This document shows positions 3,215-24,640 of a stretch of 24,640 nucleotides of DNA, in pieces. Position 1 is the stretch's first letter, and each line of letters opens with the position of its first letter. Source of the stretch: Geobacteraceae bacterium (GTDB lineage Bacteria > Desulfobacterota > Desulfuromonadia > Geobacterales > Geobacteraceae); assembly GCA_035281865.1 (NCBI GenBank), contig DATEVI010000328.1:1-24640 (forward strand), written 5' to 3'. A model generated the notes under the pieces. It was not told the DNA's origin. It ran no database searches and saw nothing but the letters and a program-made list of their open reading frames with translations. The position numbers and the translations under genes are program-made.

Positions 3215-3670
3215 CTATGCGCCGGTTGCCGGTGGACGAACTGTCATGACGGGACAAAGAGCGTTTCTCACCACTCTTTCTGCAGTACTTCCGAAAAGAA
3301 AATGGTCGATTCCGGCCCTTCCATGGGTTCCCATCACAATCAGATCAGCATTTTCATCACCGGCCTTCTTTAGTATCTCTTCATACGGTATGCCCGAGGC
3401 GGTGCATTTTTCGTAGTTATCATAATTTTTCAATTTCTGGCTGCAAAACTTGTCCATCATTTTCTCTGCACTTTGTGTAATCTCACGCTCAATAGTATCA
3501 AAAGAAATGTGAGGCACGTAAAAACCTCGCAAGTCGACCGGTTCATTTATCACGTGAATCACAATGAGTCTCGAATTGAATTTTTCCGCAAGGGATGCAG
3601 CATAATCAAATGCATACTCCGAGGTCTCGGAGAAATCGGTTGCGTACAGTATTTTCTTGAATTCTTTCAT
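3215..3670 (-). CDS. Universal stress protein (UspA family)
   Basis: KILYATDFS, DLIVMGTHGR, the ATP-binding motif G-x2-G-x9-GS (GTHGRAGIDHFLFGS) and CPVMTVR. Confidence 0.95.
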   Translation of the reverse strand: MKEFKKILYATDFSETSEYAFDYAASLAEKFNSRLIVIHVINEPVDLRGFYVPHISFDTIEREITQSAEKMMDKFCSQKLKNYDNYEKCTASGIPYEEILKKAGDENADLIVMGTHGRAGIDHFLFGSTAERVVRNALCPVMTVRPPATGA

Positions 3671-3724
3671 GGCATGCCCCCTCTGCGTATTGTCAGGCAG
3701 GCGGATCGGTTTTTCGAGACCCCG

Positions 3725-4105
3725 TTAATGGACGGTTTCTGTCAATACTTTTTTCAGGATCAGCTTCAATTCATCAATTCTTACAGGTTTGTTTACATAT
3801 TCGAAAGCGCCGAGATTCATTGCTTCAAGGTATGACTCAACACCACCGTATGCTGTTATCATAATAACATGCGTATTTGGATAGTTCCTGTTCAGTTCCC
3901 TGAGGAATGTAATGCCATCCATCTCGGGCATATTGATGTCCGTTACTATGACATTTACCTTTTGTCCGCGAAGATAATTCAGGGCTTCATAGCCGTTCGC
4001 CACACTGTCGACCAGAAAACCTTCCTTAGCAAGGAGCCTGCTCAGTGCGATACGTGCATTTTCCTCATCATCTACAACCAGAATTCTTGTCGCATTTTTT
4101 CCCAA
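3725..4105 (-). CDS. Single-domain response regulator (receiver)
   Basis: ILVVDDE, TDINMP, ITAYG, NKPV. The ORF track starts at 4168, but that codon lies in a promoter-like sequence. TTG 4105, preceded by GGGTG, is the likelier start. Confidence 0.88.
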   Translation of the reverse strand: MGKNATRILVVDDEENARIALSRLLAKEGFLVDSVANGYEALNYLRGQKVNVIVTDINMPEMDGITFLRELNRNYPNTHVIMITAYGGVESYLEAMNLGAFEYVNKPVRIDELKLILKKVLTETVH

Positions 4106-15518: not shown

Positions 15519-16199
15519 ATGAAAACAGTTCTCGTAATAGAAGATGAGAAGGACCTCGCGGACCTGATCTCCTTCAATCTGGAAAATGAGGGATATCGGG
15601 TGGTGACCGCCATGGACGGCACAGCGGGCCTGGAATCCGCCCGTAACAGTCTGCCCGATCTCATTCTTCTTGACCTGATGCTTCCCGGCATTACCGGAAT
15701 AGAGATATGCAAGATTCTCAGACGGAACGAAAAAACCTCAAAAATCCCCGTAATAATGCTCACCGCAAAAAGCGAAGAAATCGACAGGGTCGTCGGATTC
15801 GAAGTCGGCGCGGACGACTATGTGGTCAAGCCGTTCTCAAACAGGGAACTCATGCTCCGCGTCAAGGCGGTATTGAGACGGGGAGAACAGGACAAGCCAT
15901 CGGACAAGGTCATCAGGATCGGCGACCTTTCCATAGACACTTCGCGGCATCAGGTGACCTCCGCAGGCGAGGAAGTCATCCTCACCACCACCGAATTCAA
16001 ACTTCTCATCAATCTCGCGGAAAGACTGGGACGGGTTCAAAGCCGCGATGTCCTCTTGAAAAACGTCTGGGGATATAACTATATCGGCGACACCCGCACT
16101 GTAGATACCCACATAACGAGACTACGAACCAAACTGGGAGAGGCCGGAGAAATGATTAAAACCATCAGGGGCTTCGGATACAAGATGGAGGCGCCGTGA
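15519..16199 (+). CDS. phoB: OmpR/PhoB-family response regulator
   Basis: Receiver (IEDE, LDLMLP, LTAK, VKPF) plus winged helix (RTVDTHITRLRTKL, IRGFGY); heads the pst locus. Confidence 0.9.
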   Translation: MKTVLVIEDEKDLADLISFNLENEGYRVVTAMDGTAGLESARNSLPDLILLDLMLPGITGIEICKILRRNEKTSKIPVIMLTAKSEEIDRVVGFEVGADDYVVKPFSNRELMLRVKAVLRRGEQDKPSDKVIRIGDLSIDTSRHQVTSAGEEVILTTTEFKLLINLAERLGRVQSRDVLLKNVWGYNYIGDTRTVDTHITRLRTKLGEAGEMIKTIRGFGYKMEAP

Positions 16200-17965
16200 A
16201 ACTGAACATCCGCTGGAAACTGGTCGCATCCTATCTTGCCCTGGTCTTGATCATGGCCGCCGTGCTTTACGGATATCTCAATCATACGCTGGAAAAAAAC
16301 CTGCGCCAGGACGTGAAAGACAACCTGTTCAACGAGGCCGGGCTGGTAAGGCTCATGGCGGAAAAAGAAATCTCGGATATCCATCGGGATGCCCCGTCTC
16401 TGGCAGACAGAGCCGGTAAAACGATCAAGGCACGGGTCACCATTATCGCCCGAAACGGCCGGGTTACGGGTGATTCGGAAGTCGGTCCCGGAATGATAGG
16501 CAAGCTGGATAATCATGGCGACCGGCCCGAGATTGCAGCCGCCCTACAGCATGGTTCGGGAAGTTCCTTGCGCTATTCCACTACCCTTCAAACGCACATG
16601 CTGTACGTGGCCCTGCCCTTTGCAACGAAAACGGGGGAGACCGGCGCCGTGCGACTCGCCCTGCCCCTCTCGCAGGTCGAAAACGCACAATCGGAGCTTC
16701 GTAAGGTCCTCGCCGCGGCAGTAGTGCTGGCATTTCTTTGCTCGCTGCTTTTGGGTTATATATTTTCAAACATTACAACACGACCGCTCAGGACGATAGC
16801 CGCCGCCGCGGCACGCATCGGCAAAGGGGACCTTGGTTTTCGCATCCCTGTAACCGAAAAAGACGAAGCCGCGGGACTGGCGGCGGTCATGAACGACATG
16901 GCCATCCAGCTGGAAACACAGATGACCCGCATTTCCACTGAAAAGAGTCGGCTCGACACAATTCTCAGCAGCATGGGAGAAGGAGTGATGGTCACCGACA
17001 TCAACGGAACGGTGACACTTGCAAACCCATCCTTCAGGACTCTGTTCTCCCTTGGCGAATATGTGGAAGGGGAATCGCTCATCGAACTCACCCGTCAGCC
17101 GGTTTTGCACAATGCCCTGAGAAAGGTTCTGGACGCGGGCGAAGAAATCCTCGAGGAAATCACCCTTCAGCCTCCCGAGGAAAAGACCATTCTCACCCAT
17201 TGGGTTCCCTTGCTGGCAGGGGGATCAATGACGGGAGTAGTCGCCGTATTTCACGACATCACCGATCTGAAAAGGCTGGAAAAAATTCGCAGGGATTTCG
17301 TGGCAAATGTGTCCCATGAACTTCGGACCCCGGTGGCCGTCATCAAGGGTTATGCCGAAACGCTCATAAGCGACGGGCAGAAGATGGACCCGGAAAGGGT
17401 GGCCAGCTTCAGCAAAATCATCCATAACCATGCCGAACGCCTCACAATCCTCATCGGTGATCTTCTCACCCTTTCCCAACTCGAATCCGGAAAACTTGAG
17501 CTGAACCTTCAGCCGGTAGTCATCCAGGGCGCCGTAAACCGGGCATTCAGCCTGCTGGAGTCAAAGGCGAAAGAAAAAGAAATCACCATGCGGCAGGAAA
17601 TCGGTCATGCGGACACACCGGTACTGGCGGATCTGGGCAGACTGGAACAGGTATTAATCAACCTGCTCGACAATGCGATCAAGTACACTCCGCAAAAAGG
17701 CTGCATAACGGTATTCACCGAGGACTTCGGAAACAGGATACGTGTCAATGTATCCGACACGGGAATCGGCATCCCGGCAAAAGACCTGCCCAGGATATTC
17801 GAACGTTTCTATCGCGTGGATGCTGCCAGAAGCCGTGAACTGGGGGGGACCGGGCTCGGCCTTTCCATCGTCAAGCACATCGTTCAGGGCCATGGCGGCG
17901 CGGTATCGGTGGAAAGCGTTCCGGGCAAAGGATCGACATTCGCCTTCATACTCAGGAAGGCTTAG
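16196..17965 (+). CDS. phoR: Phosphate-regulon sensor kinase (TM - periplasmic domain - TM - HAMP - PAS - HisKA - HATPase)
   Basis: GTGA overlap with phoB, two TM helices, RRDFVANVSHELRTP H-box, NLLDNAIKYT, FERFYRVD and GTGLGLSI. Confidence 0.92.
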   Translation: MKLNIRWKLVASYLALVLIMAAVLYGYLNHTLEKNLRQDVKDNLFNEAGLVRLMAEKEISDIHRDAPSLADRAGKTIKARVTIIARNGRVTGDSEVGPGMIGKLDNHGDRPEIAAALQHGSGSSLRYSTTLQTHMLYVALPFATKTGETGAVRLALPLSQVENAQSELRKVLAAAVVLAFLCSLLLGYIFSNITTRPLRTIAAAAARIGKGDLGFRIPVTEKDEAAGLAAVMNDMAIQLETQMTRISTEKSRLDTILSSMGEGVMVTDINGTVTLANPSFRTLFSLGEYVEGESLIELTRQPVLHNALRKVLDAGEEILEEITLQPPEEKTILTHWVPLLAGGSMTGVVAVFHDITDLKRLEKIRRDFVANVSHELRTPVAVIKGYAETLISDGQKMDPERVASFSKIIHNHAERLTILIGDLLTLSQLESGKLELNLQPVVIQGAVNRAFSLLESKAKEKEITMRQEIGHADTPVLADLGRLEQVLINLLDNAIKYTPQKGCITVFTEDFGNRIRVNVSDTGIGIPAKDLPRIFERFYRVDAARSRELGGTGLGLSIVKHIVQGHGGAVSVESVPGKGSTFAFILRKA

Positions 17966-18264
17966 GGCTCGTCGCCGGTAATTCACCGGTAAGCCCTCAG
18001 GAAACCACTACTCCACCCGACGTCACGACTCCATCGCCTCCTCCCCCTTCAGACGATTCTCCGTTACCTCATCCCGGAAGCGTGAAATACTGACTCAGAT
18101 AAATACCGTCGTGGTGCACGTAAAGCAAATCCCTTTCCTGAATTCTCAGTTTCTGTCTCCATCCCAGTGGAATTGTAACATGAGCCGTCTATAATTGTTG
18201 TAGTGGAGTTCTCGCCACGCACCGAAGGGGAAGAGATGTAAGAGTTCAGCAGATTTTAGCACTT

Positions 18265-18299
18265 CCGTAACACGGCTGTAACATTTCTCCCACTATAAT
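18265..18299 (+). promoter_or_regulatory. Pho box and -10 element of pstS
   Basis: CCGTAAC-ACGG-CTGTAAC (7-4-7, 11-bp period, matching CTGT(C/A)A(C/T)) in place of a -35, followed by a perfect TATAAT at 18294-18299. Confidence 0.8.
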
Positions 18300-18334
18300 C
18301 CACGGAGAAATGTAATTAAAAAAAGGAGGTTCAG

Positions 18335-19366
18335 ATGTTCAAGAATTTGTGCAAATCCATAGTGGTCCTTTCCGCTCTTGCCGTTACGGCAATAGCCGGC
18401 CAGGCCTCTGCCGAGACGCTGATCAACGGCGCAGGCGCAACCTTTCCGTACCCGCTCTACTCGAAATGGTTCAGTGAGTACGCAAAGATCGATCCTTCAG
18501 TCAAGTTCAACTACCAGTCAATCGGCAGCGGTGGTGGTATCAAGCAGATTACGGCCCAAACGGTCGATTTTGGCGCGTCCGACAAGTTTCTTACCGATGC
18601 CGATCTGGCGAAGGCCCCGGGCAAGCTCCTGCACATCCCCACGGTAATGGGCGCGGTTGTCGTAACCTATAACCTCCCCGGCATCGGCAAGGGTCTCAAG
18701 CTCACCCCTGATGTCCTGACCGACATCTACTTCGGCAAGATCACCAAATGGAACGACCCGAGAATCGCCTCCGTCAACAAAGGAATCAATCTCCCCAATA
18801 GTCCAATCGTCGTCGTACATCGCTCCGACGGCAGCGGCACAACCGCGATCTTCACCGACTACCTCTCCAGCGTCAGCGCCGATTGGAAGAGCAAGGTCGG
18901 CATGGGCGCTTCCGTAAACTGGCCTGTAGGTCTCGGCGGCAAGGGCAATGAAGGGGTCGCCGGACAGGTCAAGAACATTAAGAACAGCATCGGCTATGTT
19001 GAACTGGCCTATGCCCATGAAAACAAGCTCCCCTACGCTTCCATGAAAAATTCCAGCGGCAGCTTCGTGGAGCCTTCCATCAAATCCACCAGTGCTGCAG
19101 CCGCCGGAGCAGCAAAGAATATGCCTGCCGATTTCCGCATTTCCCTGGTAAACCAGCCCGGCAAAGGCGCCTACCCCATCGTCGGCTTTACCTGGCTGCT
19201 CGTTTATCAACAGCAGAAAGATCCGGTCAAAGGTAAGAAGCTGGTCGAGTTCCTCAACTGGGAACTGAAGAAGGGCCAGAAAATGGCTTCAGCAATCCTC
19301 TACGCTCCGCTGCCGGACAATGTTGCAAAAATGGTGGAAAAGACCGTCAAATCCATCAAGTACTAG
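18335..19366 (+). CDS. pstS: Phosphate ABC transporter periplasmic binding protein
   Basis: Sec signal peptide, INGAGATFPYP, YQSIGSGGG, DFGASD, HRSDGSGTT, GGKGNEGV, GYVELAYA and AYPIVGFTW. Confidence 0.98.
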   Translation: MFKNLCKSIVVLSALAVTAIAGQASAETLINGAGATFPYPLYSKWFSEYAKIDPSVKFNYQSIGSGGGIKQITAQTVDFGASDKFLTDADLAKAPGKLLHIPTVMGAVVVTYNLPGIGKGLKLTPDVLTDIYFGKITKWNDPRIASVNKGINLPNSPIVVVHRSDGSGTTAIFTDYLSSVSADWKSKVGMGASVNWPVGLGGKGNEGVAGQVKNIKNSIGYVELAYAHENKLPYASMKNSSGSFVEPSIKSTSAAAAGAAKNMPADFRISLVNQPGKGAYPIVGFTWLLVYQQQKDPVKGKKLVEFLNWELKKGQKMASAILYAPLPDNVAKMVEKTVKSIKY

Positions 19367-19390
19367 AACTGGTCGGAAAAGAAAAGACGG

Positions 19391-19430
19391 AAAACAAGCG
19401 TGAGACACGCAATCTCACGCTTGTTTTTTT
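19391..19430 (+). terminator. Strong stem-loop with T tract after pstS
   Basis: AAAACAAGCGTGAGA-CACGCAA-TCTCACGCTTGTTTT perfect 15-bp stem that ends in a T7 run. Confidence 0.75.
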
Positions 19431-19465
19431 AAGCCATTTATGCAATCTATAGATCACTTGCCAAG

Positions 19466-19490
19466 GAGGCCGGCAAACCTTGCCGGCCTC
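19466..19490 (+). other. GC-rich 11-bp hairpin upstream of pstC
   Basis: GAGGCCGGCAA-ACC-TTGCCGGCCTC, ending 19 nt before ATG 19510. Confidence 0.6.
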
Positions 19491-19509
19491 TTCTGAGTCT
19501 GGAAGAAAC

Positions 19510-20514
19510 ATGAAAAACGATAATTGTGCAATCGAGGCGGGGGCCGGGTCGATAGTGGAAACGGGATCATCCTTACAGAAAATGAAGAAAATGTTGAACG
19601 GTGACTTCATCTTCAAAGGCATTACGGTCTTCTTCGCTTTCAGTATAATCCTCATCCTGCTCCTAATGCTCTTTGAGATGACCAGTCAGAGCCTGCCCTC
19701 CATCCGGAAATTCGGCTGGGATTTCATCTACAGCAGTCAATGGGATGCCGTGACGGAAGAATTCGGCGCCCTTCCTTTCATCTTCGGCTCCGTGGTATCC
19801 TCGATCCTGGCGCTTCTTCTGGCGACTCCCCTGAGCGTCGGCGCGGCAATATTCCTTACCGAGATCACTCCCCGAAAAATCGGAGGGATAATCTCTTCCC
19901 TGGTCGAATTGCTGGCGGCAATCCCCAGCGTCATTTACGGACTATGGGGCGTTCTGGTCATGGCACCCTGGCTGCAGAGAACCGTGCAGCCCTTTCTGAT
20001 AGAGCATTTCGGCTCACTTCCCTTTTTTCAGGGAGCTCCTTACGGGGTAAGCATGCTTGCCGCGGTCTTGATCCTGATGATCATGGTTATTCCCATCATC
20101 ACCTCCATAACCAAGGAAATCCTCATGGCCGTGCCCCAGAGTCAGCGCGAGGCGGCCATCGCCCTGGGGGCCACCCGCTGGGAGATGATTCGAATGGCCG
20201 TGCTCCCCTATGGGCGCTCCGGAATCCTGGGATCGGTCATCCTCGGGCTTGGACGGGCAATCGGAGAAACCATGGCGGTAACCATGGTGATCGGGAATAC
20301 CCCGCAGATATCATTATCCCTCCTCAACCCGGCCTACACCATGCCGAGCGTGATAGCCAACGAATTCGCCGAGACGACTTCCGACATGCACGCTTCGGCT
20401 CTCATGGAAATCGGCCTCATACTGCTGGCAGTTACCCTGATCATTAACATAATCGCCCGGTTTCTGGTTTGGAGTGTGACCCGCGGTGAGAGCAGAGGGG
20501 GGATGATCCAATGA
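19510..20514 (+). CDS. pstC: Phosphate ABC transporter permease
   Basis: FGALPFIFGSV, ELLAAIPSVIYGLWG, EAAIALGATRWE, LGLGRAIGETMAV and SVIANEF. Start moved to ATG 19510; the ORF-track TTG 19480 lies inside the hairpin. Confidence 0.96.
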   Translation: MKNDNCAIEAGAGSIVETGSSLQKMKKMLNGDFIFKGITVFFAFSIILILLLMLFEMTSQSLPSIRKFGWDFIYSSQWDAVTEEFGALPFIFGSVVSSILALLLATPLSVGAAIFLTEITPRKIGGIISSLVELLAAIPSVIYGLWGVLVMAPWLQRTVQPFLIEHFGSLPFFQGAPYGVSMLAAVLILMIMVIPIITSITKEILMAVPQSQREAAIALGATRWEMIRMAVLPYGRSGILGSVILGLGRAIGETMAVTMVIGNTPQISLSLLNPAYTMPSVIANEFAETTSDMHASALMEIGLILLAVTLIINIIARFLVWSVTRGESRGGMIQ

Positions 20515-21344
20515 CCGGTGTAAAACTGCGCAAAGCGAAAAACGTGCTCATGACCTTGCTGATGCTTGCCGCAACAGCTGCGATACTTTTTCCCCTCGTC
20601 ATCATATTTGCGCATATCGTCAAGATGGGATTCAGCTCGATCAGCCTCGACTTCTTCCTCCACATACCGAAACCGACCGGAGAAACCGGCGGTGGAATGG
20701 CAAACGGAATGCTCGGTTCCCTGGTCCTGATCGGCATGGCTTCCGCCATCGGGCTGCCTATAGGTATCTTCGGCGCCATATACCTCTCCGAATACGGAGG
20801 CGGGCGAATATCGAAAGTAATCCGTTTTGCAGCGGACGTGCTGAACGGTATCCCGTCGATAATTACAGGCATGGTCGCCTATACCCTCATAGTGGTGCCG
20901 ATGAAAGGGTTTTCAGCATTCGCGGGCGCGGTGGCGCTCGCCCTTATCATGACGCCGATAGTCCTGCGAACCGCCGAGGAACAGCTGAAACTGGTCCCCA
21001 ACTCGCTGCGTGAAGCCTCACTGGCGCTCGGCGTGCCCCTCTGGCGAACGACGTTCAAGGTCACCCTGCGGAGCGCCATGACGGGTGTCATGACCGGCGT
21101 ACTCCTGGCAGTCGCACGCATTGCCGGTGAAACGGCGCCCCTCCTCTTCACCGCGCTGGGGAATATGTTCTGGAGCAAGAAACTCACCGAACCGATCGCC
21201 GCCATGCCTCTCCAGATATTCAACTTCGCCATTTCTCCCTACGAGGACTGGCACCGTCTGGCCTGGGCCGGGGCACTCGTGCTCGTAACACTGATGTTCA
21301 CCATCAGCCTGGCGACCCGGTATTTCAGCAGGCAAAAATATTGA
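20511..21344 (+). CDS. pstA: Phosphate ABC transporter permease
   Basis: ATGA overlap with pstC; GIFGAIYLSEY, GIPSII, REASLALG and ARIAGETAPLLFT. Confidence 0.97.
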   Translation: MTGVKLRKAKNVLMTLLMLAATAAILFPLVIIFAHIVKMGFSSISLDFFLHIPKPTGETGGGMANGMLGSLVLIGMASAIGLPIGIFGAIYLSEYGGGRISKVIRFAADVLNGIPSIITGMVAYTLIVVPMKGFSAFAGAVALALIMTPIVLRTAEEQLKLVPNSLREASLALGVPLWRTTFKVTLRSAMTGVMTGVLLAVARIAGETAPLLFTALGNMFWSKKLTEPIAAMPLQIFNFAISPYEDWHRLAWAGALVLVTLMFTISLATRYFSRQKY

Positions 21345-21433
21345 CGGCTGATGAAGAAGACAAGGTGGCTGCGCGCCATTTCAACGGCGTGTTTAACCAA
21401 AAATACCGCGCATGACGCATTTCAGAGGATTTT

Positions 21434-22192
21434 ATGGGTACAAAAATCAAGCTTGAAGATATGAATGTATACTTCGGTAATAACCGGGCCGTAAAAGACG
21501 TCAGTATCGATTTCCATGAGAACATGGTTACCGCCATCATCGGACCGTCCGGGTGCGGCAAATCGACCGTCCTACGCGCCATGAACCGGATGCACGACAT
21601 GATTCCGTCCGCCCGTGTAACCGGAAAAATAATTTTCGACAATGGCGACATTTACGACAGAAATGTCGACCCGGTCGCTATACGACGAAGAATCGGCATG
21701 GTCTTCCAGAAGCCGAACCCCTTCCCTGCCATGTCGATCTACGACAACGTCATCGCGGGATACAAGCTTGTGGGCAGACTGAAAAGGCAAGATGCGGACG
21801 AGACCGTCGAGGAAAGTCTGAAGCGGGTAGCCCTATGGGATGAAGTAAAAGACCGGCTCAAAAAAAGCGCCATGGAACTCTCCGGAGGACAGCAGCAGCG
21901 GCTGTGCATAGCCAGAACCATCGCCGTAAAACCGGAAGTGATTCTAATGGACGAACCCTGTTCGGCACTTGATCCGATTGCAACGGCAAAGATAGAGGAA
22001 CTCGTCAACGAGCTGAAGGAGCAGTATACCGTCGCAATCGTCACCCACAACATGCAGCAGGCGGCCCGTGTTTCCGACTATACTGCCTTCCTGTACCTGG
22101 GGGAATTAATAGAGTTCGACAAAACTGGTAAAATATTCACCAATCCCGAGAAAAAACATACGGAAGACTACATTACCGGAAGATTCGGGTAA
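21434..22192 (+). CDS. pstB: Phosphate ABC transporter ATPase
   Basis: Walker [19 protein letters not shown], signature LSGGQQQR, Walker B LMDEP, SALDP and VTHNMQQA. Confidence 0.98.
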
Positions 22193-22193
22193 G

Positions 22194-22277
22194 GTCAGTA
22201 GTCAGTAGTCAGTAGTCAGTAGTCAGTAGTCAGTAGTCAGTAGTCAGTAGTCAGTAGTCAGTAGTCAGTAGTCAGTA
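22194..22277. repeat. Perfect tandem heptamer array (GTCAGTA)x12
   Basis: Counted 12 uninterrupted units (84 bp), starting 1 nt after the pstB stop codon. Confidence 0.99.
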
Positions 22278-22309
22278 GCCGGGAAGGCTTAAAGTAATTT
22301 CATAAAACG

Positions 22310-23005
22310 ATGGGGACACGGATGGAAAGAGAACATATAGTCAAACAGTACGACACTGAGCTCAACGAGATACGCACAAAACTCCTGGAGATGGGAGGCA
22401 AGGTCGAGCTGATGATCTCCAACTCGATCAAGGCGCTCGTAGACAGGGATTCGGAGCTTGCCGACCGGACCATCCTGTCCGACCACGAGATCAATCATCT
22501 TGAGGTGGAGACCGACGAAAGATGCCTCGAAGTGCTTGCCCGTTGGCAGCCCGCCGCCCGGGATCTTCGTTTCCTCACCCTGGCGCTCAAGATCGTCACG
22601 GACCTGGAGAGGATCGGAGACCAATGCGTCAGCATAGCCAGCAGGGTAAAGGAACTCAATGAGGAACCGCCGCTGAAACCATACATCGACCTTCCCCGGC
22701 TGGCTGAAGCGTCACGTACCATGGTCAAGGAAGCGCTGGACGCCTTTGTCCGGGGCGACGAACAAATGGCCATGAAGGTGTGCAATGAAGACCAGTTTGT
22801 CGATGACCTGAATATCCAGATCCAGCGCGAACTTTTGACTTTCATGATGGAAGACCCGTCCACCATAAGCCGCGCCCTGAAACTCAACTACATCTCCAAG
22901 TACCTGGAACGAATCGCGGACCACGCAACAAATGTTGCGGAAATGGTCATTTTCATGCTCAAAGGCAAGGACATACGACACACCTCGTCTCCCGGAAAGT
23001 TATGA
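22310..23005 (+). CDS. phoU: Phosphate signalling protein PhoU
   Basis: Two PhoU repeats with ExxxD motifs (EVETDE), QPAARDLR, DLERIGD and YLERIADHATNVAE. The start could be ATG 22322. Confidence 0.97.
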   Translation: MGTRMEREHIVKQYDTELNEIRTKLLEMGGKVELMISNSIKALVDRDSELADRTILSDHEINHLEVETDERCLEVLARWQPAARDLRFLTLALKIVTDLERIGDQCVSIASRVKELNEEPPLKPYIDLPRLAEASRTMVKEALDAFVRGDEQMAMKVCNEDQFVDDLNIQIQRELLTFMMEDPSTISRALKLNYISKYLERIADHATNVAEMVIFMLKGKDIRHTSSPGKL

Positions 23006-23025: not shown

Positions 23026-23055
23026 AGGGCGCGATTGCATTCGCGCCCTTTTTTT
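23026..23055 (+). terminator. Intrinsic terminator of the pst-phoU operon
   Basis: AGGGCGCGA-TTGCAT-TCGCGCCCT followed by a T tract. Confidence 0.85.
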
Positions 23056-23205: not shown

Positions 23206-23224
23206 TGTTACAATCGTGTTACAT
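23206..23224 (-). promoter_or_regulatory. Inverted Pho-box-like repeat
   Basis: Minus strand GTAACACGATTGTAACA is 15/17 identical to the pstS box GTAACACGGCTGTAACA. Confidence 0.65.
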
Positions 23225-23255: not shown

Positions 23256-23275
23256 TATACTATCAGTGGTATAAT
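23256..23275 (+). promoter_or_regulatory. Extended -10 promoter of the downstream operon, with an overlapping inverted repeat
   Basis: TGGTATAAT (TGn-TATAAT) at 23267-23275; TATAC-N8-GTATA at 23256-23273; GGAGG RBS at about 23291. Confidence 0.55.
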
Positions 23276-23302: not shown

Positions 23303-23644
23303 ATGGCACTCATTGACGATTTGAAGGGCAATGTGGTGAGCGGGCTTCTGATCGGTATCGGCGCGGCCATCCTGGCGCCGGTGGTTCTTCCGATTCTAGC
23401 GAGCATTGCCAAACCGGTGGCCAAAGCGGCGGTAAAAGGCGGCATCATGATGTACGAGAAAGGCAAGGAAGTCGTGGCGGAAACGGGGGAGATGCTCGAA
23501 GACATAGTGGCGGAAGCAAAGGCGGAACTGGCTGAAGAACAGCATGCAGCCGAGGCTGGGGCAGCGATGGCAGGGGCGGGCTCGGCCGGTGAAGCCATGC
23601 AGGATATAAAAAACACTTTCGCCCCGGGCGAGGGCCGGACTTGA
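23303..23644 (+). CDS. DUF5132-like small membrane protein with an N-terminal GxxxG helix (FezA-like candidate)
   Basis: ATG 23303 after GGAGG; SGLLIGIGAAILAPVVLPILASIAKPVAKAAVKGGIMMYEKGKEVVAETGEMLEDIVAEAKAEL recognised as the DUF5132 pattern. Confidence 0.75.
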   Translation: MALIDDLKGNVVSGLLIGIGAAILAPVVLPILASIAKPVAKAAVKGGIMMYEKGKEVVAETGEMLEDIVAEAKAELAEEQHAAEAGAAMAGAGSAGEAMQDIKNTFAPGEGRT

Positions 23645-24120
23645 TGATTCCAATTGCCCATTGCGTCCACAAAACCGCGACGAGGATCCGCATACGCATT
23701 CCCTCAAAAAAGGGTGACATGTCTTACTTTGCGGTTTTGCAGGAACAGCTTGTTCATTGTGAGCAAGTCACCGGGTCCGAGGCAAACTCTCTGACGGGCG
23801 GCGTCCTTATCTTTTATGCGGGGGATTTTAAAGCGATAGCGGATTATGCGAAACGACGAAGCATCTTCAGGCTGTCGGAAATTAGGCGAAATCCCGGCAT
23901 TATGAGCACTACCGTGACTACTTACAAAAGTCTGGACGACAGATTGAAGAAGCTGAGCGGAGGAGAACTGGATTTGCCAAGCGCGGCATTTCTGGCACTG
24001 GCGGGCGCGGGCGTTTACAAGATCGCACAGGGCAAGTTCGCGGCTCCCGCATGGTACACGGCCTTCTGGTACGCCCTGAACATATTTCTGAAGGCCCGGG
24101 AAAAGGGCAGTTCCAAATAA
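23644..24120 (+). CDS. HMA-like (HMA_2 type) domain protein with a C-terminal membrane segment (FezC-like candidate)
   Basis: TGATG overlap with the upstream gene; VHKTATRIRIRIP...EANSLTGGVLIFY resembles the HxxPGRxRxR...NxxTGSxLI pattern; no CxxC; hydrophobic C-terminus AAFLALAGAGVY...PAWYTAFWYALNIFL. Confidence 0.7.
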   Translation: MIPIAHCVHKTATRIRIRIPSKKGDMSYFAVLQEQLVHCEQVTGSEANSLTGGVLIFYAGDFKAIADYAKRRSIFRLSEIRRNPGIMSTTVTTYKSLDDRLKKLSGGELDLPSAAFLALAGAGVYKIAQGKFAAPAWYTAFWYALNIFLKAREKGSSK

Positions 24121-24164
24121 CTCATGCGGCTCTTGGGCTGCCTGGTGAAGAAGGGGGGGTCCCA

Positions 24165-24640
24165 ATGGCGGAAAAAATCACCAAAGAAGAAACAATAAAG
24201 GAAGAGGAAACATCAAAAGGGATCGGCAAGGCAGGCACGACAGTCAAAGAAGGGATCGTCGAGAGCCTCAAGGGCATTAACGAAATAGAAGCGGAAATTG
24301 TCAGTCTGGTCAGGAGCACGGTTTCCAATACCCTCCAGGCTACCGGCTCGGTTGCCAATGGAGGAGTGAACGTGTCCAAAGACATTCTCAAAGGCGCCAT
24401 TGCCGCTGCTGAAGAAGTGGGTACCGGTCTGACGGTAAGCACGAAAAGCGTTGCAAAAGGCATCATCATGGGAGTCAGCGACGTCGGAGGCGATGTATTG
24501 ACGGTTGCAGGCCAGACAATCAGAAGCGCCGTCAAGGGTGCGGCGGAAGTTGGCGGCGATGTGGGGGTGGTCGCAAGAAGGACCGTTGACGGCGTTCTTG
24601 AAGCAACAAAGGAGATTGGCGGGAATGTCGAGGAAGTTGC
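24165..24640 (+). CDS. Protein of tandem 22-aa amphipathic repeats, cut off by the window edge
   Basis: Not in the ORF track because it has no stop in the window. Translated by hand from ATG 24165 (G-rich RBS); open for 158 codons to the edge; at least six 22-aa units. Confidence 0.85.
   Translation, partial: MAEKITKEETIKEEETSKGIGKAGTTVKEGIVESLKGINEIEAEIVSLVRSTVSNTLQATGSVANGGVNVSKDILKGAIAAAEEVGTGLTVSTKSVAKGIIMGVSDVGGDVLTVAGQTIRSAVKGAAEVGGDVGVVARRTVDGVLEATKEIGGNVEEV

Follow-up and report, generated by a model that had tools for sequence, protein, structure and literature searches.

The window analysed here is the whole of contig DATEVI010000328.1 (24,640 nt), part of a metagenome-assembled genome of 2.56 Mb in 518 contigs that is 91% complete and whose nearest relatives in the genome collection are labelled Geobacteraceae. 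Its last three genes, g1, g2 and g3, probably (we put it at about 0.6) form the promoter-proximal part of a conserved operon built around a P-type ATPase of the P2A class fused to a CoBaHMA domain, the rest of which would lie beyond the contig end. The conserved order of this operon is a DUF5132 protein, a CoBaHMA/hairpin protein, a 22-mer repeat protein, the CoBaHMA-fused P2A (SERCA/PMR1/LMCA1-like) ATPase and an altered MetK, and its most likely function, as suggested by these genes, is that of a Pho-induced divalent-cation pump served by scaffold proteins of the PacL/Fez kind. A sequence-only reading had tentatively taken the trio for the 5' part of a ferrosome (fez) cluster, with iron-phosphate storage wired to phosphate status. 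The phosphate wiring is borne out, and the annotation of the window is corrected to an assembly-truncated copy of the operon; this is no ferrosome locus, and no evidence points to iron. The three genes are:

23303..23644, + strand: g1, DUF5132 protein of 113 aa (PF17195, 52.7 bits)
23644..24120, + strand: g2, CoBaHMA (HMA_2) domain followed by a C-terminal helical hairpin, 158 aa, FezC-like (PF19991, 49.6 bits)
24165..24640, + strand, running past the contig end: g3, first 158 of about 217 aa of a 22-residue helical-repeat protein (from its periodicity and an AlphaFold2 model)

A conserved operon in Nitrospirota and Desulfobacterota

Searching about 185,000 species genomes for the g2 family, marked by the motif GNFxAPAWYTAFWYALNIFLK, returned 201 positive genomes, which belong to Nitrospirota (Thermodesulfovibrionales) and to many lineages of Desulfobacterota. 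The census reported here covers the best 80 loci of the family. A DUF5132 gene lies immediately upstream of the g2 homolog at 79 of the 80, and a pump gene (64/80), a g3-like gene (60/80) and a small stand-alone HMA_2 gene (42/80) are found near it, with a MetK paralog behind the pump at 59 loci. Among the loci that offer at least 6 kb downstream of g2, the pump occurs within 4 kb and on the same strand in 53 of 56, and in 47 of the 56 a g3-like gene separates g2 from the pump. The repeat protein, which the sequence-only reading did not know from described fez operons, is a regular member of the operon and no peculiarity of the window locus. Furthermore, 59 of the 62 pump open reading frames (ORFs) carry the motif PEGL, the other three being without a recognised motif in transmembrane segment 4 (TM4) and two of these being short ORFs, and D[YF]SCA was found at none of the 80 census loci. 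In the window, the first three genes of the operon are present in the expected order and the next positions would fall beyond the contig. The literature searched yielded no description of a CoBaHMA-P2A pump operon, and a study of phosphate limitation in Desulfovibrio alaskensis does not mention the operon.

At two loci (L147, G222:C110, and L148, G196:C255) no more than about 10 kb separates the P2A operon from an arginine-rich P1B pump of the CPC type, and at G222:C110 and G273:C30 (L149) a small integral-membrane gene, judged MntP/YtaF-like by inspection, is found nearby. The gene content of these three neighbourhoods suggests islands of CoBaHMA-linked cation pumps. The patchy distribution of the family had also prompted the idea of magnetosome genes, which was dropped, no mam-type genes being present in any context examined.

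The pump and the altered MetK in relatives

Metagenome contigs from relatives whose g2 is 82–83% identical to that of the window share the order pstSCAB-phoU-(DUF445)-DUF5132-HMA_2-g3, and on the longest of them the gene after g3 opens with an arginine-rich HMA_2 domain and a Cation_ATPase_N segment. A genome of the same genus (G004) holds the complete pump, which comprises HMA_2, Cation_ATPase_N, E1-E2, Hydrolase and Cation_ATPase_C domains and has IPEGLPAV in TM4. This pump aligns end to end with bacterial and eukaryotic P2A Ca2+(/Mn2+) ATPases (E 1e-119 to 1e-143), its best solved relatives being SPCA1 of the SPCA1/PMR1 type (E 1e-143), Listeria LMCA1 (2e-133) and SERCA1 (6e-119). It shares with them PEGLP in TM4, N..E in TM5 and N..SD in TM6, and differs from them by its additional N-terminal CoBaHMA domain.

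The MetK paralog encoded behind the pump departs from the housekeeping enzyme of the window's genome at several motifs that the latter keeps, with GDQG changed to KNQV, GDCGLTGRK to HSGLTGRK and GGGAFSGKD to SGAALSGKD, and with GHPDK kept. Examples from relatives, each compared with the housekeeping MetK of the window's genome, are:

L027:1011-2222, altered MetK
L032:13904-15112, altered MetK
L035:13340-14527, altered MetK
L147:9640-10848, altered MetK

With such substitutions the paralog may not make S-adenosylmethionine (SAM). MetK enzymes cleave triphosphate too.

The proteins encoded by g1, g2 and g3

The sequence-only description of the individual genes agrees with what profiles and models show: three co-oriented genes, of which the first has a GxxxG membrane helix, the second is translationally coupled, arginine-rich and HMA-like with a C-terminal membrane segment, and the third is made of amphipathic repeats. 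The g1 gene has a strong ribosome-binding site (GGAGGTG). Its product matches Pfam DUF5132 over residues 35–79, well above the gathering cut-off of 25 bits, and a profile search finds this domain once in the window's genome. A hydrophobic stretch of 33 residues (about 9–41) contains GLLIG/GIGAA, with GLLIG at residues 14–18, and is followed by a tail rich in Glu and Ala (9 E and 14 A per 53 residues). This layout of an N-terminal GxxxG helix and a predicted cytosolic Glu/Ala-rich tail or helix resembles that of FezA and PacL proteins.

The ATG of g2 overlaps the stop codon of g1 (TGATG). The encoded protein begins with HKTATRIRIRIPSKKG, its start being also written IAHCVHKTATRIRIRIPSKKG, and has an arginine-rich domain without CxxC (stretch IAHCVHKTATRIRIRIP). 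It matches HMA_2/PF19991 over its whole length (cut-off 30 bits), a domain that likewise occurs once in the genome by profile search. PF19991 corresponds to what Benzerara, Gaschignard and co-workers describe as the CoBaHMA domain, in which an HMA fold is supplemented by a beta0 strand bearing His and a basic patch; these authors proposed an anionic lipid as its ligand. In the AlphaFold2 model of g2 (predicted local distance difference test, pLDDT, 80.5 overall), the domain is folded as beta0-beta-alpha-beta-beta-alpha with pLDDT above 90, the strands at 4–10 and 14–18 preceding alpha1, and helices follow at 84–104, 111–128 and 137–155. MerP, PacS and similar HMA domains superpose on this model with TM-scores by target of 0.6–0.7, and R14 and R16 are invariant among 32 homologs. 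The model and the sequence together give g2 the marks of a CoBaHMA protein, namely the extra N-terminal beta0, the basic residues and the lack of CxxC.

The third gene was analysed through an ortholog of 217 aa that is 93.7% identical and consists of eight 22-residue repeats. Its self-similarity at offset 22 is 1.05, against a maximum of 0.27 in shuffled sequences, and its helical hydrophobic moment of 1.31 exceeds that of shuffles (0.58 +/- 0.08) by about 9 standard deviations. AlphaFold2 predicts for g3 eight helices of about 19 residues packed in a compact solenoid (pLDDT 78.5; predicted template-modelling score 0.70), and Foldseek finds that only designed helical-repeat proteins resemble this model. 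Searches of Pfam, NCBIfam and the Atlas gave no family above threshold for g3; the sub-threshold hints were a Senescence domain (E 0.009–0.07) and DUF6781 (score 0.76). The repeat family is expanded in the genus, with tandem paralog pairs outside the operon at L003 (G000:C4; 1-552 and 715-1455) and eight matches in G004 on contigs C213, C229, C193 and C170. Some members in other genomes are fused to a ROS/MucR DNA-binding domain.

A link to phosphate

Upstream of the trio, the window encodes phoB, phoR, pstS, pstC, pstA, pstB and phoU at 15519-23005, and a spacer of about 250 nt separates the phoU terminator from the co-oriented g1, g2 and g3. The elements of this region are:

18266..18283, + strand: Pho box of the pstS promoter, CGTAACACGGCTGTAACA, 10 nt before TATAAT (from the sequence; at most 1 mismatch to TGTWACA-N4-TGTWACA)
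22310..23005, + strand: phoU, final gene of the phoBR-pstSCAB-phoU block (Pfam PhoU, E 8e-45)
23027..23055, + strand: phoU terminator with an 8-bp GC-rich stem, a 6-nt loop and a T7 run (read from the sequence; unlisted by a simple terminator scan)
23206..23223, + strand: Pho-box-like direct repeat upstream of g1, TGTTACAATCGTGTTACA (exact TGTWACA-N4-TGTWACA)
23267..23275, + strand: candidate extended -10 element, TGGTATAAT (inferred from the sequence; unlisted by the promoter scan, with no -35)

The position of the operon behind phoU and the Pho-box-like site before it, both part of the sequence-only reading, hold up well. With up to 1 mismatch, TGTWACA-N4-TGTWACA has three sites in the 2.56-Mb genome, at 23206, in the pstS promoter and on contig C413, of which two are exact. 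The second exact copy, on C413 of this genome (G000; about 3483-3787), has a third upstream half-site and lies before a gene that is truncated where the contig stops; the product of that gene, MTDTALYHIVTKVPVAKPSD...VYVTDDEGKLCGAVRLADLL, looks by inspection like a divalent-cation protein of the CBS/MgtE type.

The same motif occurs in the same orientation upstream of DUF5132 in several Nitrospirota loci (TGTTACAACTTTGTGACA). At up to 2 mismatches it was found in 11 of 74 regions upstream of DUF5132, against 49 of 1480 control segments. Adjacency to the phosphate-uptake genes also recurs in other genomes: of the 35 loci flanked by 8 kb or more on each side, in Nitrospirota and Desulfobacterota, 15 have at least two pst/phoU genes within 10 kb, although these genomes are related and the counts are not independent. 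As a rough estimate, which assumes one pst operon per 3–4 Mb genome, chance would produce such adjacency in less than 1% of cases. The arrangement varies, the operon being co-oriented behind phoU in the window and divergent from pstS in Nitrospirota, and other loci adjoin porin O/P, PHO4/PhoU_div, phoBR, alkaline phosphatase and OlsB/OlsA-like genes. By these counts the Pho box upstream of g1 is better than chance, and the operon is linked to phosphate. Another motif, GTAGGCAAGTAATG, stands 60–80 nt before the DUF5132 start in three relatives of different lineages (L026, L031 and L032) and is not found in the window.

Two further observations concern this stretch of the contig. The pstB-phoU spacer is filled by a perfect (GTCAGTA)x12 tandem array (window 22194-22278), and contigs of three other soil metagenomes depart from the window just upstream of 22320, with an identical 30 letters each, so that this spacer varies among strains.

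A truncated copy at the contig end

Neither a P1B-6 nor a CoBaHMA-P2A pump is found in the window's assembly, because the contig stops within g3. The P-type ATPases that the assembly does contain are a CopA-like and a Zn/Cd-type P1B pump, both with CPC, and a split P2-type enzyme. The latter, which has PEAL, lacks HMA_2 and is split over contigs C387 and C384, was the only P2-type match (35–39% identity) when the G004 pump was used as a tblastn query for a copy elsewhere in the assembly, and it is a different ATPase. Contig C4, which opens with a g3-like gene, was rejected as the continuation: that gene is a 79%-identical paralog and is followed by a second paralog and unrelated genes. The locus could not be extended past 24640 because the public metagenome contigs that cover it are short and break at the same place, two alternative unitigs diverging at 24593-24640. 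A 470-nt contig of a soil metatranscriptome, 95% identical to window 23748-24206, runs from the 3' end of g2 across the spacer into the beginning of g3; it is consistent with co-transcription in a relative, DNA carry-over being another possible source.

Several points weigh against reading the trio as the start of a divalent-cation pump operon. Both the MetK paralog and the CoBaHMA pump are absent from an assembly that is 91% complete, and 3 of 56 related loci keep the small genes without a pump, so that the operon of this genome could be pump-less as well. The best NCBIfam model for the G004 pump, a PMR1-type Ca-ATPase, scores 632 bits against an equivalog cut-off of 798, the transported ion is assigned through family resemblance alone, and the roles of the operon members are predictions from their genes. 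Furthermore, g1 matches neither DUF6110 nor DUF1490 (for the latter, no match at E up to 1 in a Pfam search) and is without a metal-binding tail, its end being NTFAPGEGRT with no His/Asp cluster. Finally, some 45 nt separate the Pho box before g1 from the candidate -10 downstream of it, unlike the pstS box, which occupies the -35 position.

The pump-less loci lend some weight to a different view of g1–g3, as a pump-independent module of the Pho regulon for membrane remodelling or envelope stress that would, for example, sense or buffer the loss of anionic phospholipids in phosphate starvation. The anionic-lipid binding proposed for CoBaHMA and the OlsB/OlsA-like lipid genes near several loci would suit such a module, as would the lack of a pump in the window's assembly. 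However, the closest relatives, 82–94% identical, carry the pump right behind g3, and the MetK paralog missing alongside the pump, on a contig that stops inside g3, points to one unassembled stretch. We consider this module quite unlikely.

Comparison with fez, PacL and ccyA systems

Genuine fez-type clusters were located in the same phylum by their pump signature. One contains FeoA, an 85-aa GxxxG protein, a DYSCA/HNxxT pump and a soluble HMA_2 protein, and another a 188-aa HMA_2-plus-hairpin protein beside a DYSCG/HNxxT pump. Fez clusters (Grant et al., bioRxiv 10.1101/2020.01.10.902569) share with the present operon a GxxxG membrane protein, an arginine-rich CxxC-less HMA_2-hairpin protein and a P-type ATPase that starts with an arginine-rich HMA_2 domain, all in one operon. 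Comparison of g2 with the 188-aa FezC-like protein gives 32% identity over the full length, the hairpin included (E 6e-16), and by this alignment g2 is a true full-length homolog of FezC-like proteins; the homology is silent on where the proteins act. The likeness of g1 to the FezA-like protein is weak (28% identity, E 0.003), and the latter is a DUF6110 protein, whereas g1 is DUF5132. The sequence-only reading of a fez-type cluster thus finds support in the homology of g2 and the layout of g1, and fails on the pump.

Indeed, the pump of the operon is a 10-TM P2A ATPase of about 1000–1090 aa with PEGL, whereas the fez pump is a P1B-6 ATPase of about 720–760 aa defined by D[Y/F]SCA and HNxxT. 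A 22-mer protein and an altered MetK are additional here, and the neighbours are Pho genes instead of Feo/Fur. None of the iron-homeostasis genes that accompany fez (Feo, Fur, DtxR) lies next to the trio, whose neighbours are phoBR-pstSCAB-phoU; those of the relatives are pst, porin O/P, PHO4 and alkaline phosphatase. The iron half of the proposed iron-phosphate storage has no footing in these neighbourhoods.

A true ferrosome operon would place a P1B-6 FezB beyond the contig end or elsewhere in the genome, with iron stored together with phosphate. The pairing of a GxxxG protein with an arginine-rich HMA-like/TM protein, as in fezA and fezC, would agree with this, and the genome is only 91% complete. 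However, the assembly holds no ORF with the FezB-defining pair D[Y/F]SCA (or, more loosely, D[YF]SCx) and HNxxT, no such pump stands at any of the 80 orthologous loci, where PEGL prevails, and the nearest relative has a P2A pump directly after g3. The genuine fez cluster with FeoA and a DUF6110-type FezA, for its part, contains neither g3 nor MetK, and no iron genes lie near the window locus. A ferrosome operon is therefore highly improbable.

The PacL1-CtpC system of Mycobacterium tuberculosis provides a second comparison. According to Boudehen et al. (2022, PMC9374683), the pump CtpC is scaffolded in foci of the plasma membrane by PacL1, a protein with a TM domain and Glu/Ala repeats that binds the N-terminus of CtpC; the same study ties DUF6110 and DUF1490 (PacL) proteins to pumps of the P1B6 and P1B6-like classes. 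Shared with the present operon is a single-pass protein with a cytosolic Glu/Ala region encoded just upstream of a P-type ATPase with an arginine-rich N-terminus, the pump being stabilised in foci by PacL1; CtpC differs in being P1B6-like (CPC), and no CoBaHMA-hairpin protein, repeat protein or MetK is found there.

A third is the ccyA neighbourhood of Microcystis aeruginosa PCC 7806 (Bruley et al., bioRxiv 10.1101/2024.07.07.602159), in which DUF5132 and a CoBaHMA-hairpin protein are encoded beside a calcium transporter and co-expressed with it. The transporter of that cyanobacterium belongs to the Ca2+/H+ exchangers and not to the ATPases, a link to Pho is not reported, and ccyA (GlyZip) has no counterpart in our operon. 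By gene content, the operon belongs to the same broad accessory kit as the fez and PacL systems; by the feature that defines a fez cluster, it is not one.

Proposed mechanism and site of action

We propose that PhoB turns the operon on under phosphate starvation and that the pump would then export a Ca2+-like divalent cation out of the cytosol. By analogy with PacL1 and CtpC, g1 would act as a single-pass scaffold or chaperone of the pump. The g2 protein and the N-terminal CoBaHMA domain of the pump would dock through their basic face onto an anionic partner (lipid, phosphate or polyanion), and g3 may join them as a helical-repeat partner, soluble or peripheral. The system most likely acts, again by analogy, as a pump platform in the cytoplasmic membrane that serves efflux, since both the PacL precedent and the bacterial P2A pumps known so far work at the plasma membrane. 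To our knowledge, bacterial P2A pumps of known location reside in the cytoplasmic membrane and export their ion.

Alternatively, the operon could build or load a membrane-bounded body inside the cell, in which a Ca2+-type cation would be stored together with phosphate, polyphosphate or carbonate. Such a body would be to calcium what the ferrosome is to iron, its membrane being shaped or marked by g1 and g2 and coated by g3. Several traits are compatible with such a body. In addition to the full-length homology of g2 to FezC-like proteins, FezA, FezB and FezC are the most enriched proteins on isolated ferrosomes, and genes for DUF5132 and CoBaHMA-hairpin proteins flank ccyA and the Ca2+/H+ exchanger, with co-expression, at the Microcystis locus for intracellular CaCO3. 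The C-terminal helices of the g2 model, 18–19 residues long, might suit a wedge-like hairpin, g3 is strongly amphipathic, and the Pho wiring and the altered MetK would fit a phosphate-rich body.

Against these stand the export role of P2A pumps as we know it and the fact that arginine-rich/HMA_2 and PacL-like proteins also accompany plasma-membrane efflux pumps. The predicted g3 is a compact solenoid, not an extended lipid-binding helix; its paralogs outside the operon and the MucR fusions make a purely organelle-coat role less likely. Phosphate starvation would be an odd moment for building a phosphate store, and granules have been observed in no carrier. We regard such a body as unlikely, but as the main alternative to efflux.

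In its fullest form, which we hold to be doubtful, the storage idea would describe a new organelle: a lipid-bounded, acidocalcisome-like body of anaerobic Nitrospirota and Desulfobacterota, which a CoBaHMA-guided calcium-type pump would load, to which the DUF5132 and FezC-like hairpin proteins would give its shape, and which would be coated by the 22-mer protein and managed by the Pho system. Its content might be Ca/Mg together with phosphate or polyphosphate, and the altered MetK, instead of making SAM, would have tri- or polyphosphate as its substrate.

Implications

With the Pho-induced cation pump as the preferred reading, the copy of the operon in the window is truncated, and its key gene has to be obtained by closing the gap in the assembly. 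A cation transporter paired with small membrane proteins of the DUF5132/DUF6110/DUF1490 type is common to ferrosomes, to the metal-efflux platforms of mycobacteria and to the CaCO3 locus of cyanobacteria. Basic CoBaHMA proteins without CxxC are also found in ferrosomes and at the CaCO3 locus, and CtpC has an arginine-rich N-terminus. The present operon, which occurs in the genomes of about 200 uncultured anaerobic species and is tied to Pho in at least two phyla, places the same accessory kit on a different class of pump, the calcium-type P2A ATPases. Should this kit serve generally to position or regulate P-type pumps, or to build mineral bodies, the operon would extend it from transition metals to Ca/Mg and link it to the phosphorus economy of the cell, a link between phosphorus and a cation pump that would be relevant for phosphorus cycling in soils and sediments.

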